DNA of 64,000 nucleotides from a phage. Under the pieces are notes generated by a model. It saw only the letters and a program-made list of their open reading frames with translations. It ran no database searches and was not told the origin of the DNA. Where the stretch lies: the sequence record NC_101837.1; one strand, written 5' to 3'. Below are positions 47,137-58,476 of the stretch, one piece after another (the first letter of the stretch is position 1; each line of letters starts with the position of its first letter). The translations under genes were made by a program, and so were the position numbers.

Positions 47137-47240
47137 TTTATAGCATCCTTATTAGTCATGTTGTGCACCATATTTGTGTATTTTACCATGATTATGGTGC
47201 ATTGTCAATTTAACCTTTCAAGCAATTCAAGAACGTGTGT

Positions 47241-47280
47241 CAAAACCATAAAAGCAAAAAGCCTCACCCGAAGGTGAGGC
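47241..47280 (-). terminator. rho-independent terminator after tail tube gene
   Basis: stem GCCUCACC/GGUGAGGC with UUCG loop 47261-47280, U-tract UUUUUGCUUUU. Confidence 0.55.
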
Positions 47281-47298
47281 TTATGCTAAAGTGTGCCC

Positions 47299-47772
47299 TT
47301 AGATAATACCTGCAAGACCTGCGAGGCCAGTAAGAGCACCAGTGATGTTATCACGGTTGAGCCATGCATCCAGAATACCGATATCCCAGTCCAGCTGACC
47401 TACTTCGGTTCCGTAAGTCAGGTCAGGCTGTTTCTGGATCCAACCAATTGTGGAAATACCAGGACCCTGGCTACCTTCCAGCAGAACTGGGAAGAATACC
47501 AGACCAGTAATCGATGCCTGTTTCTGCCAGTCAGAAAGGTAAGCGTTCCATACAGAAGTGTTCTGCAAAGATACAGTCATAACACCAGATTGGTTACGAG
47601 ACAGGGCCGCAGACATTTCGCCATCCACACCAACGTGAGGGTAGATGTTGTCTTCGTTTCTTGAAACAACGATCTTGGTGTCAGCAGCGAAGCCAGTGAC
47701 ACGCTGCTGCATCAGGTACAGTTTGACCTTTTTAGGGTCATACGCATAAGGAGTTAAAATTTGAGTTTCCAT
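47299..47772 (-). CDS. tail tube protein
   Basis: 157 aa, between sheath-size gene and chaperones, followed by strong terminator. Confidence 0.45.
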   Translation of the reverse strand: METQILTPYAYDPKKVKLYLMQQRVTGFAADTKIVVSRNEDNIYPHVGVDGEMSAALSRNQSGVMTVSLQNTSVWNAYLSDWQKQASITGLVFFPVLLEGSQGPGISTIGWIQKQPDLTYGTEVGQLDWDIGILDAWLNRDNITGALTGLAGLAGII

Positions 47773-47782
47773 CTAGTCTTCC

Positions 47783-49159
47783 TTATTCAGTCATTGCAAC
47801 AGCATTGGTGGATTTAGAACCAACTTTGTCCAGAAGGACGTTGATCCGGATACGAACGAAGTGCAGGGCGTTGTTATACACCAGTTCTACTTTCACACCT
47901 TCCAGAACACGAGCAGCCAACTGATTGGTTGGGATTTCTGCACGTTTAGGAACTGTGATGATCGGGTCGTAGAATACATTATTGTCTTCGTCAAAACCTG
48001 TCAGGATCGCACCATTCTTAATGCCAGTATTGATCGGGTTGTTCATCAGAACAGACTTGATAACCGGAAGATCATCATCAGACATCTTCATGCTTAAACC
48101 CATGTTGGAGCGACGATGCATGTACCCAAACATAGATTCTTCAGATCTGAACTTGATCCAGTGTGCAAAACGAATAGCGTCTGCATACTGACCTGAAGCA
48201 CACTTACCTTCCCAGAAAGCGCCAACACCGTTAATCATTCTGTAGAAGTTAACGTGGTTTTCCCAAATAGCCATACGCTGAGTTAAAGTCAGAGACGGTG
48301 CAATCACACCTGGCATCTGTTTTAAGTGCAAGCTGTCGCCGTAAGACGGATCGTTGGATGCCATAGCACCTATGATACCACCCTCCGGGAAGTCCTTATC
48401 TGCACGAGGATCGTACATGCCGACACTGTCATATTGTGCAGCTTTCAGTTTGGTGGCGATGTTATTATCTTTACCAGTCACATCTTCTGCAGTAGAGTAG
48501 ACATGCAGCTTGTAGTTAGCCTGAGCCCACTTAGCACATGCTTCAATGTCGGTGTGGTCTTCATGGCACAGGAAGTACCAATTGTCACGCTCAGCATTGA
48601 TCTTATCAACTACTGTAGAAGGTTTTTCAGCATTGGCGATATTTTTGATTGTATAGTTACCAGTATGGTAACCAACAGTACAGTCACCAGTGATGGTGAT
48701 AACACCATCAGCAGCCTCTACAGTGATATCGTCCAAGTTATCATCTGCTTCGATTTTAGTCTTCATTGACTCTGCAATCTGAGTTGCAGCTGTTCCACCA
48801 GAGATAGGGACTATCAAAGAGGTATTGTAGCTACCTTTTGCAATAGTCATTACGACATCGGTATCAGCTGCGGCAGCAATACCTTTAAAATCTACAGTGG
48901 TCTTTTCTTTGGCCTGTCTGCCGATCATAACGTATTGTGGAGGGAATACACCACCAAAAGCTTTTGCTGCAAACTCATACGCTGCAGAGCCTTGTGCGAA
49001 ACCATCTTCCACCATCTGATCCAGCTCTGCATATACGCGAGCTCGCTCAGTAAAGTTGTTGTGGATAGCGATGAACAGGGGAGTTTCGAAACCTACAGTG
49101 TCAATAGGCTGGGTTCCGAGGTTAACTGTAACATCTACCACTTTATCTAAATATGGCAT
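47783..49159 (-). CDS. tail sheath protein
   Basis: 458 aa, directly upstream of tube gene; AAGAGGAAACA before ATG; gene order sheath-tube-chaperone-tape measure. Confidence 0.45.
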   Translation of the reverse strand: MPYLDKVVDVTVNLGTQPIDTVGFETPLFIAIHNNFTERARVYAELDQMVEDGFAQGSAAYEFAAKAFGGVFPPQYVMIGRQAKEKTTVDFKGIAAAADTDVVMTIAKGSYNTSLIVPISGGTAATQIAESMKTKIEADDNLDDITVEAADGVITITGDCTVGYHTGNYTIKNIANAEKPSTVVDKINAERDNWYFLCHEDHTDIEACAKWAQANYKLHVYSTAEDVTGKDNNIATKLKAAQYDSVGMYDPRADKDFPEGGIIGAMASNDPSYGDSLHLKQMPGVIAPSLTLTQRMAIWENHVNFYRMINGVGAFWEGKCASGQYADAIRFAHWIKFRSEESMFGYMHRRSNMGLSMKMSDDDLPVIKSVLMNNPINTGIKNGAILTGFDEDNNVFYDPIITVPKRAEIPTNQLAARVLEGVKVELVYNNALHFVRIRINVLLDKVGSKSTNAVAMTE

Positions 49160-49231
49160 TTGTTTCCTCTTAATATCTGTGCACGGATATCAAACACGCA
49201 GTGTAATCATTACACTACACAATTATAACGA

Positions 49232-49783
49232 TTACTGACCACTGTCTGTAACCGCTTTACCAGAATTGGGTGAAGGGAAGTGTGTGGTTATTTCAGCCTT
49301 AATTCCCTGAAGATCCTCAAAAGCCCCAATGTCTGTTTCAACAAACCTTACGTTAAATGTCAGCATCACAGTGGCTCTATTTTCATACGTCTGCTTATTC
49401 AACGGCACTCTTTGAGGTGAGATTGTTGAATTGTTAGAGTAGGCAAAGCACGATCCCAGAGGGAAATACTTGTCATAAAACATTGGAAGGTTTATTGCTT
49501 GCAATACTCTGCTAAGTGCAGCATATGCCCTGCCACGATAAGCTGTTAACAGATAAGTAACAGTGTAGCTGTGGGTGACGTAAGCATTACCCTCCGCATC
49601 TTGAAACTCATTATCTTCCCAAGTGGTGGGATTGATCGCCAAGGTTTGTAAAAGCACAAACTCACCTTCCGGCTTCGGTATGGTAGAGCTTTCTGCCAGA
49701 ACTACAGTTCTTCCTGTGGCAACCTTGACAAGCTTAGCAATGGTTGTTTCAAGATCAGAAAAAACTTTTTCGAAAGCTTCCAT
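49232..49783 (-). CDS. neck/tail completion protein
   Basis: 183-aa ORF between head and tail modules. Confidence 0.3.
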   Translation of the reverse strand: MEAFEKVFSDLETTIAKLVKVATGRTVVLAESSTIPKPEGEFVLLQTLAINPTTWEDNEFQDAEGNAYVTHSYTVTYLLTAYRGRAYAALSRVLQAINLPMFYDKYFPLGSCFAYSNNSTISPQRVPLNKQTYENRATVMLTFNVRFVETDIGAFEDLQGIKAEITTHFPSPNSGKAVTDSGQ

Positions 49784-50208
49784 CAGTCTTCTCCTTCAGG
49801 CTCTTCTACCACAAAAAATCTATATCTCCCACCACCAGAGGTAACATATGCATCGCATTTTAAAACGGTAAACCATTTCAAGTCACCACGGATGTCAGGC
49901 AGCTGAATTTGATCAGCCATTGCATATGTTCCTTCATCTGGACTATACAACTTGGTTGAGGAGTAGACTGTAAAAGCCTCGTACTGTCTGTCACCTTCTG
50001 GATTTATTTGAGAGGAGTAATCTTTAGCTGCCCTTCCTGTCAACGGCTGCACAACACACTCTAAGACATCAAACTCTTCATACTCAAGTTCTAACCCCTC
50101 GTTAGCAAAAGGACCACCAACTGTTTTGTTATACACTCTGTGGCGACCTTTGAATGTTTTACGGGGTATTAGCCTGTTCTTTCCTATCAGCTTATAACCT
50201 GCTGCCAC
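49783..50208 (-). CDS. neck/head-tail joining protein
   Basis: 141-aa ORF. Confidence 0.3.
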   Translation of the reverse strand: MAAGYKLIGKNRLIPRKTFKGRHRVYNKTVGGPFANEGLELEYEEFDVLECVVQPLTGRAAKDYSSQINPEGDRQYEAFTVYSSTKLYSPDEGTYAMADQIQLPDIRGDLKWFTVLKCDAYVTSGGGRYRFFVVEEPEGED

Positions 50209-50694: not shown

Positions 50695-50735
50695 TAATGT
50701 ATTTTACCACAAAGATACATCAAAAGCAACAATTT

Positions 50736-56928: not shown

Positions 56929-58476
56929 TTAGATAAAACGCTTGAACATAGAAGGTGATGAGATTGATGGAATCACACAAGGAAGTGCTACCTCCTCTTT
57001 CTCCAGGAAATTAATCGCAGAAGCTACGCAGTCGGCCCAGTCGTCTTTTCTGTTAAATGTTGATCTTTCCCCGTTGAATTTTTCAAGTTCAGTCAGAAAT
57101 GCTTCCAGAGTATCAGGATGGAAACTGGATTTTACAATCCTCACCATTCCTTGTTGGGCAAGATTGGCAAAAGGTGAGAACCTTGTCAGTTTAGACTTGT
57201 TGGAAGGCATTGGGTCTTCTTCAACCCTGAACCCTTCGGCAAGCAAGGATCTGGAGGAGGTTAAGAACTCACTCTTACCTGCCTGCCCTGGGTCCACAGA
57301 GAAGACGATTATGCAATCATCACCATCGAACTGCGCCTGTTTCCTGATGATCACATCTCGTTCACCAGCCTTTTTACAGAACTTGCCTTCCAGACCTGTG
57401 GAATATCTCCCGTCATCCACGTTCTCAGGACAATAATCGCCGGACAGGTAATAAAAGCCGTCGCTATCTTTACTTACCTTAATACTGGCAGTAAAGTCAG
57501 GAAATTTATTACCGGAAGTTCTCTCGGTTCCTGCCTTATCCCATGCCCTGCAAGATACTGATCCAAGAGGTACTCTATCGGCATCACGAAGGAAAGATCT
57601 TTGAAAATAGTTTGCACCCTCAGGCTTTGCAAACCAGTTACCATGGAGAAGCTGAGCTTTTTCCAGCTCTGGTAGACCTTCGAGGAAAGCAAGGTATTCT
57701 GGGTTGTCTCTCAAACAGACAGGATTATCGAATATTGTTGCGCCTATGAACGAGAATGACAACGGTCTTGGCTTGATCTCTACACCAAGTCCGTTAACCG
57801 TGGTGTATTTCTCTATCAACTCTTCTTTAGAATCTCCCCAGATAAATTCACCGTCGCGTCGGATAAAATATCTTTTCTTACCGCATTTCTCCGGATCTGG
57901 ATACCCTTCATCGTCCAACCACCATCTAACCAGTTTGGCAAGCATGTGTTCTGAATCGGGGTTACAGCTGATAACCATTCTTGATGGATACTTTGACTGA
58001 GATCGCAGACGAGACATCAGGTAGTCTATCTGCTCCCATTCGAACTGCGTGCCCTCATCGAAGCAAACCATGGTGTACTCAAGCCCCTGATGGTTAAGCT
58101 TATCTTGTACATACTCCATATGGCAGTATTTTACAACAGCTCCCTTTTTGCTTCTATCCCACTTACCAGTGTTCGGATCAAACCGTGGAAAAATGAACTT
58201 ATGATCCTTCTCTCTGAACTTTGGCTTAATGTTTTCAGGCAGATCACTATAAATAGCTACTGCTTTAGGCCATAGTCCACCCTCACCTTCCAACTGTGGG
58301 GTTGTTCTTCGGAACATAACCACAGAGCTGTGGGGGTCATCAATAATTTTAAGTGGCATCAACTGCAAGAGGAACGACTTGCCAGACCCTGCTGCACCGC
58401 CGATTACCAAGATATCTGCATCGTTTTCGAGGATCATCTTCTGCTTTTCAGAACACGGTCCGTAAATCTTAGACAT
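56929..58476 (-). CDS. terminase large subunit
   Basis: 515 aa; Walker A VIGGAAGSGKS near N-terminus; acidic nuclease-like C-terminal half; AAGGAGAGAGG before ATG. Confidence 0.7.
   Translation of the reverse strand: MSKIYGPCSEKQKMILENDADILVIGGAAGSGKSFLLQLMPLKIIDDPHSSVVMFRRTTPQLEGEGGLWPKAVAIYSDLPENIKPKFREKDHKFIFPRFDPNTGKWDRSKKGAVVKYCHMEYVQDKLNHQGLEYTMVCFDEGTQFEWEQIDYLMSRLRSQSKYPSRMVISCNPDSEHMLAKLVRWWLDDEGYPDPEKCGKKRYFIRRDGEFIWGDSKEELIEKYTTVNGLGVEIKPRPLSFSFIGATIFDNPVCLRDNPEYLAFLEGLPELEKAQLLHGNWFAKPEGANYFQRSFLRDADRVPLGSVSCRAWDKAGTERTSGNKFPDFTASIKVSKDSDGFYYLSGDYCPENVDDGRYSTGLEGKFCKKAGERDVIIRKQAQFDGDDCIIVFSVDPGQAGKSEFLTSSRSLLAEGFRVEEDPMPSNKSKLTRFSPFANLAQQGMVRIVKSSFHPDTLEAFLTELEKFNGERSTFNRKDDWADCVASAINFLEKEEVALPCVIPSISSPSMFKRFI

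Follow-up and report, generated by a model that had tools for sequence, protein, structure and literature searches.

A conserved RNA hairpin in the tail sheath leader of rV5-like phages is most likely an ordinary mRNA element and not a late-gene operator

Based on the analysis reported here, we suggest that the perfect 17-bp palindrome in front of the tail sheath gene of an rV5-like phage is most likely an ordinary kind of mRNA element and not a late-gene operator. In the model that we favor, tentatively and at somewhat less than an even chance, a hairpin built around the palindrome forms in an untranslated stretch between two genes of a polycistronic late mRNA and acts post-transcriptionally, on the stability, processing or translation of the sheath-tube mRNA. 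From the predicted fold and its conservation, we infer both that this RNA structure is present in the infected cell and that it works through one of these three steps.

The late transcription unit

The window, i.e. the whole stretch of 64,000 nucleotides of phage DNA that was analysed (NC_101837.1), is by its sequence a Vequintavirus, that is, an rV5-like myophage of E. coli. Positions 47700-49900 are 100% identical to several Escherichia Vequintavirus phages (inoa, naswa, WalterGehring and others), and the late and structural genes are on the minus strand. The features of the late unit relevant to the sheath leader are the following.

50701..50709, minus strand: extended -10 late-type promoter TGGTAAAAT, found by motif scan and corresponding to 'P056' of rV5 (Table S4, PMC3606486)
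49232..49783, minus strand: neck/tail terminator protein gene, 183 aa (PF23961 Phage_tail_terminator_9, E 6e-21), directly upstream of the leader
49234-49232, minus strand: stop codon TAA of the neck/tail terminator gene
49165..49171, minus strand: Shine-Dalgarno sequence (SD) AAGAGGA of the sheath gene, from reading the sequence
49159-49157, minus strand: sheath ATG
47783..49159, minus strand: tail sheath gene, 458 aa (phrog_205 tail sheath, E 4.5e-118; Pfam DUF3383)
47299-47772, minus strand: tube gene, downstream of the sheath gene
47259..47282, minus strand: strong intrinsic terminator after the tube gene, found by scan and corresponding to 't052' of rV5 (Table S4, PMC3606486)

Farther upstream of the neck/tail terminator gene are the genes for a head-completion protein and a Neck1-type protein, and the promoter at 50709-50701 is the nearest late-type promoter upstream of the sheath leader. 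A homologous promoter, TGGTATAAT, is present at the same place in the sister clade described below (L062), and the operon layout is common to the window and this clade. Given the promoter at 50709-50701 and the next terminator at 47282-47259, one transcript probably carries three neck genes of low copy number together with the sheath and tube genes, which makes the palindrome intercistronic. Thus, the TGGTAAAAT promoter probably drives a neck-sheath-tube transcript that contains the hairpin. Judged by our estimate of virion copy numbers, sheath and tube are needed in perhaps tens of times higher amounts than the neck protein.

For rV5, eight 'late' TggTAaAAtA motifs and 20 terminators have been published (PMC3606486, Table S4). 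The late-module promoters and terminators of the window agree with this table, in which the leader of the sheath gene (gene 53) has no entry. The remaining gaps in the late module contain a GC-rich terminator, an extended -10 promoter TGGTAAAAT(A), or both. rV5-like phages have neither a phage RNA polymerase nor T4-type late factors (PMC3606486). In the transcriptome literature on the Vequintavirinae, we found no 5'-end or RNA-seq data for any Vequintavirus, and the one candidate paper concerned a Kagunavirus.

The comparison with related genomes also brought up two matters of annotation. Seventeen GenBank records (MG0656xx; A147, C2, D#, C7 and others) name Campylobacter jejuni as the host, yet their identity to E. 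coli Vequintavirus in this region is 99-100%, which casts doubt on the host label or the purity of the samples. The annotation of phage inoa splits the large terminase into two parts with a 'recombinase endonuclease' ORF between them (L058 23110-25540), which looks like an intron or a homing-endonuclease insertion; the equivalent in the window is a single uninterrupted ORF of 515 aa at 56929-58476.

The palindrome and the predicted fold of the leader

The palindrome AGTGTAAT-C-ATTACACT is within the 72-nt gap from the neck/tail terminator gene to the sheath gene. On the plus strand, 49200-49216 reads AGTGTAATCATTACACT, with perfect 8-bp arms and a single central base; on the sense (minus) strand, the gap reads TAA-TCGTTATAATTGTGTAGTGTAATGATTACACTGCGTGTTTGATATCCGTGCACAGATATTAAGAGGAAACAA-ATG. 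In minus-strand order, the TAA stop is followed by TTATAATTG (49228-49220), the palindrome (49216-49200), the SD AAGAGGA and the sheath ATG, and the Murica annotation has a ribosome_binding_site in the equivalent leader. The original prediction, which had placed the palindrome in the sheath leader between a -10-like element and the ribosome-binding site (RBS) and after the preceding stop codon, is therefore correct in every position.

By its size alone, the palindrome is statistically unremarkable. Among perfect palindromes with 8-bp arms, the window has five whose spacer is 1 nt (Markov shuffles: 1.35 +/- 0.9), three of these five falling in coding sequence, and nine whose spacer is 0-3 nt (4.7 expected), and the whole genome of phage inoa has 39 with spacers of 0-5. 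The sequence itself is unique: no second copy within 2 mismatches was found in the window or in the complete 138.7-kb inoa genome, and pattern searches with up to 4 mismatches together with half-site counts in the window and the whole genome returned this copy alone. The half-site AGTGTAAT occurs 7 times in the inoa genome with 6.6 expected. With one copy per 138.7-kb genome, the palindrome is not a repeated late-gene operator, and the recurrence at other late genes that had been envisaged was not found.

Folding of the sense-strand RNA places the palindrome in the middle of three hairpins.

49227..49256, minus strand: hairpin A, AGCGGUUAC / GUAAUCGUU, with an inner GAC/GUC helix; in the minimum-free-energy fold of both clades, with a probability of 0.98
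49222..49227, minus strand: TATAAT, a hexamer resembling a -10 element, in the unpaired linker that separates hairpin A from hairpin B, from reading the sequence
49198..49218, minus strand: hairpin B, GUAGUGUAA-UGA-UUACACUGC, 9 bp with a 3-nt loop, from folding; the palindrome is its core
49200..49216, minus strand: the core perfect 17-bp palindrome, AGTGTAATGATTACACT on the sense strand, from direct reading and repeat search
49169..49194, minus strand: hairpin C, UUUGAUAUC-CGUGCACA-GAUAUUAAG, from folding

Hairpins A, B and C fold nearly all of the 72-nt gap and leave mainly the SD single-stranded. Hairpin A holds the final codons and the stop codon (49234-49232) of the neck/tail terminator gene, and the 3' arm of hairpin C covers the first 3 nt of the SD. 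Hairpin B has a predicted free energy of -8.4 kcal/mol in the window and -8.1 kcal/mol in the sister clade (z -4.0 and -5.2, respectively), and hairpin C of -5.1 kcal/mol (z -4.3) and -5.8 kcal/mol, respectively. In a 321-nt context, the pair probability is 0.85 for hairpin B and 0.77 for hairpin C. In a 102-nt context, the A-B-C minimum-energy architecture is identical in both clades. Thus, the sense-strand fold is thermodynamically significant in two clades (z -4.0 to -5.2). Rfam covariance models, applied to 48900-49500 around the palindrome, gave two chance-level matches (E 2.7 and 4.7), neither of which overlaps the leader, and a known RNA family was rejected on this basis. The hexamer GTGCAC, which is present in the loop of hairpin C and in the late promoter after the tube-gene terminator, was considered as a recurring special motif and rejected with 36 occurrences genome-wide versus 25 expected.

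Conservation and pairing changes

Within Vequintavirus, the 72-nt leader is identical in 115 of the 116 GenBank genomes. In the lone variant, phiWec191, TATAAT is changed to TATAGT at 49223, outside the hairpin. When nine diverse relatives are set against the window, variation is seen at 1 of 72 leader sites and at 61 of 600 sites in the flanking coding sequence (Fisher P = 0.006). Because 50 of these 61 sites are third codon positions, of which 50 of 200 vary, the whole leader is under stronger constraint than the neighbouring synonymous sites.

The pairing changes come from a sister clade whose sheath is 70% identical, represented by six contigs from IMG/VR and metagenome scans (L014-L017, L021, L022). 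The set also includes L062, L074 and L082, with contigs from IMG/VR 3300045988 and two metagenome contigs of 86 and 137 kb; the phage contigs of the clade are roughly 117-141 kb. Megablast against the GenBank phage collection gave no match to this clade, which is probably an undescribed sister genus or species group, and between the tube gene and the next late promoter it has additional ORFs (L062 4855-7206).

The sister-clade leader is TCGTTCTCCATGTAGCGTAATGATTATGCTACTTGTTAATATCCTGTGCACAAGATATTGAAGAGGAAACAA and its hairpin B GUAGCGUAAUGAUUAUGCUAC. Four stem positions differ from the window and 9/9 pairs are kept: from window to sister clade, U-A is changed to C-G (a compensatory change), G-C to G.U and U.G to U-A. 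The G.U wobble pairs are possible only in the sense-strand RNA, and as duplex DNA the sister-clade dyad is imperfect (G/T mismatch). Hairpin C is kept through changes of G.U to A-U and of U-A to U.G. By contrast, TATAAT is replaced by TCTCCA with a 2-nt deletion. Because the sister clade is without TATAAT and has nevertheless kept the hairpin, the hairpin is conserved independently of the putative promoter. The two clades do not differ in the loop and upper stem, GUAAUGAUUA; the covariation is in the lower stem.

This covariation is a single independent contrast of two haplotypes, and each of the four substitutions is a transition. Four substitutions placed at random would leave every pair intact with a probability of 0.008-0.017 if unrestricted and of 0.16 if only transitions are allowed, and a shuffle control of pair counts with three rows is uninformative, the observed value being reached in 168 of 500 shuffles. 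Protein-seeded scans of IMG/VR and metagenomes and a DNA-pattern scan for further haplotypes returned the same two plus unrelated chance matches. The original suggestion of an RNA stability hairpin is supported with respect to the RNA hairpin, for which the pairs kept in the sister clade and the predicted fold (z about -4) argue; that the hairpin affects stability is the part that we can only propose.

In the proposed mechanism, the late mRNA would start at the TGGTAAAAT promoter ~1.5 kb upstream and would include the three neck genes, sheath and tube up to the strong terminator. The A-B-C structure would protect the gap, which is not translated, against endonucleases. A cut in the A-B linker, or initiation at TATAAT, would leave the stem-loop at or near the 5' end of the sheath-tube segment. 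This segment would then outlast the neck-gene segment and could be heavily translated. A role of hairpin B in insulating the RBS was rejected: in silico, SD accessibility is 0.37 in the wild type versus 0.33 +/- 0.06 with a scrambled hairpin, and deletion of the hairpin likewise leaves it without change, so that an RBS-insulating role is without computational support.

The suggestion that the palindrome is an operator for late-gene timing fared less well. As a DNA element, it would be the site of a dimeric regulator that overlaps the start of an internal TATAAT promoter and times the transcription of the sheath gene, which we consider improbable. TATAAT at 49227-49222 is a perfect -10 hexamer and possibly a weak internal promoter, the hexamer is kept in 115/116 genomes with the variant TATAGT retaining the key A and T, and by our reading the dyad starts ~6 nt downstream and spans roughly +1 to +17, the classic position of an operator. 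However, the hexamer has no TG extension (it is preceded by CGT), its best -35 element matches by our reading at most 3/6 at a spacing of 16-18 nt, and the site was absent from the output of the promoter scan. A scan for TGnTAnAAT found 50709-50701 and 47188-47180 and no site in the sheath leader, all recognised late promoters are of the TGGTAAAAT type, and neither the rV5 analysis (PMC3606486) nor the Murica annotation marks a promoter there; CGTTATAATT has, by our reading, 6/10 positions in common with the rV5-type late promoter TggTAaAAtA. With a site that is unique in the genome, half-sites at chance frequency, no adjoining TGGTAAAAT promoter and a hairpin that outlives TATAAT in a sister clade with an imperfect DNA dyad, the evidence argues against late-gene timing by this palindrome. 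It is equally hard to see the palindrome as a leaky intrinsic terminator or an attenuator between the neck and tail genes, the latter having been part of the original prediction, and we regard both as very doubtful. A permissive terminator scan picks 49221-49195 with 12 pairs including G.U and the tail TTTGATATCC, and the sister clade, too, has a U-rich tail, UUGUUAAU, after the stem. As in the Rho-independent terminators of rV5-like phages, a stem-loop is followed by a U-containing stretch on the sense strand. Unlike in these terminators, the stem is AU-rich and about half as stable, there are only 3 consecutive U, and the hairpin is upstream and not downstream of highly expressed genes. Only 3 of the 9-12 pairs are G-C, and the free energy is -8.4 to -9.9 kcal/mol, whereas the 20 predicted rV5 terminators have -11.5 to -24.7 kcal/mol and long T runs and do not include this site (PMC3606486). 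The tail, UUUGAUAU after the 12-pair stem and GUGUUUGA after the 9-pair stem, just passes the permissive scan and overlaps the arm of hairpin C, i.e. the U-rich tail doubles as the 5' arm of that hairpin, and termination at this place would cut the supply of the two proteins of which the most copies are required. For an attenuator, there is an alternative helix, GUAAUCGUUA:UAAUGAUUAC, that overlaps the upstream stop codon. In the fold ensemble, the probability of this helix, 49235-49226 : 49212-49203, is 0.007 for the window and close to 0 for the sister clade, and attenuation through it was rejected.

Two inverted repeats were noted in passing. On the plus strand, a 10-nt inverted repeat, GTAATCATTA / TAACGATTAC, at 49203-49212 and 49226-49235 joins the region of the upstream stop codon with the palindrome's top; it is the source of the alternative helix above, whose predicted occupancy is negligible. 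The other, TGCACCATA / TATGGTGCA, is a perfect 9-bp repeat at 47164-47172 and 47193-47201 that straddles the -10 element (47188-47180, minus strand) of the strong late promoter after the tube-gene terminator, which has TTGACA, a 17-nt spacer and a TG-extended TAAAAT. Because only the downstream arm of the 47164-47201 repeat would be transcribed from that promoter, the repeat is a dyad at the level of DNA and, as a candidate operator, preferable to the palindrome in the sheath leader.

Two further alternatives differ from the favored model in what the hairpin does. The hairpin could be a translational operator to which a phage protein, e.g. free sheath or tail-terminator protein, binds and tunes sheath translation to assembly, and this we find decidedly unlikely. 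Hairpin B ends ~38 nt before the sheath ATG, and an invariant top GUAAUGAUUA over a covarying lower stem would suit a loop recognised by a protein; in other genera, the fixed RGCAC/GUGCU and GGUCAAUAA with variable loops described below suggest sequence-specific recognition there. The translational operator of T4 gene 43 is a hairpin ~40 nt ahead of the start codon (PMC3014915), and in both cases related phages have kept the top of the hairpin. The T4 operator, however, overlaps the RBS and binds the product of its own gene, a polymerase, while the gene in the window is structural. Moreover, no candidate RNA-binding protein was identified, a single copy implies that there is no regulon, the invariance of the loop comes from two haplotypes only, and there is no match to an Rfam family. 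The palindrome could also have no specific function and have arisen by chance in a leader that is constrained as a whole by spacing, SD context or low divergence, which is unlikely, if less strikingly so. Similar palindromes are common in the window and genome-wide, transitions alone would keep all pairs with the probability given above, Mydovirus has no hairpin at this place, and the in silico mutants leave SD accessibility unchanged. Against this stand the low variation of the leader relative to third codon positions, one true compensatory double change, the three-hairpin fold common to both clades and the observation that the linker beside the hairpin diverged freely, indel included, while the stem kept pairing.

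Other leaders and known systems

Among the other Vequintavirinae genera, Seunavirus, Henunavirus and Certrevirus have a longer structured sheath leader, as do some unnamed IMG/VR clades (L002, L003, L005-L009, L027-L029, L040-L057). The leaders measure 100-130 nt and show strong conservation. They begin with a 13-15-bp G.U-rich hairpin, followed by a covarying GC hairpin, often with C(UUCG)G and with a U tail in one lineage only, a variable linker with no conserved -10 and a hairpin RGCAC-loop-GUGCU, which by our count is centred 40-50 nt before the sheath ATG; they end with an invariant GGUCAAUAA and then the SD. The stem RGCAC/GUGCU and GGUCAAUAA are conserved while the loops vary, and RNAalifold supports the three main hairpins, i.e. 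the G.U-rich, the GC and the RGCAC-loop-GUGCU hairpin. In phage 4MG, the latter is 49 nt before the ATG, by our count the same distance as the hairpin in the window, from which it differs in sequence. The leaders also contain an invariant GUGCUGGUCAAUAA. There are hints in the sequences that they may have two alternative helices: UCAAUAAC could pair without a mismatch with GUUAUUGA, a part of the first hairpin's 5' arm, and L048 has a U-to-C change in this arm and an A-to-G change in both possible partners.

The layout with a hairpin 40-50 nt before the ATG and a AAGAGGAAAC SD is common to the window and these genera. An nhmmer profile of the other-genera leader alignment gave no match at 49160-49260, the best match elsewhere having E = 0.13, and homology of the window leader to the Seunavirus, Henunavirus and Certrevirus leaders was rejected on this basis. 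Because the profile misses the window leader, the parallel across genera is positional only and we claim no homology. In Mydovirus, the gap before the sheath gene is 32 nt and has no hairpin; thus, such a structure is dispensable in the subfamily. A more far-reaching proposal, to which we give little credence, would make the palindrome the middle module of a lineage-specific three-hairpin element that acts as a protein-bound translational operator and couples sheath and tube synthesis to the state of tail assembly, a case of autogenous control of a structural gene, with the longer leaders of Seunavirus, Henunavirus and Certrevirus as variants.

The favored model, with a post-transcriptional role for hairpin B in the late mRNA, has parallels in known systems. 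The 5' hairpin of E. coli ompA and the leader stem-loop of phage T7 gene 10 are stabilising stem-loops in 5' untranslated regions. As in these two cases, a short stem-loop is upstream of a strong SD and a very highly expressed gene, and decay that depends on the 5' end would be blocked in the same manner if the transcript starts or is cut just 5' of the hairpin. Unlike in ompA and T7 gene 10, the hairpin in the window lies inside a polycistronic transcript, except in the case that TATAAT is active or the RNA is processed, and it has no sequence similarity to either of them. Segmental mRNA stability is known from papBA and malEFG/REP of E. coli and from stable T4 intercistronic hairpins. Similar to papBA and malEFG/REP, a structured intercistronic gap is found in an operon from which very unequal amounts of product are required, and relatives of the window have GC hairpins of the C(UUCG)G type without U tails in the same gap. 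In contrast to malEFG/REP, the hairpin in the window is AU-rich and single-copy and has a UGA loop instead of a GC tetraloop.

Because the hairpin is single-copy and not tied to late promoters, the view of late-gene timing in these phages is unchanged. If the favored model is true, the hairpin would offer a compact, transferable element with which expression could be tuned in engineered phages. For the phages themselves, a hairpin that sets the stability or translation of the sheath-tube mRNA would help to explain how unequal amounts of protein are made from one late transcript.
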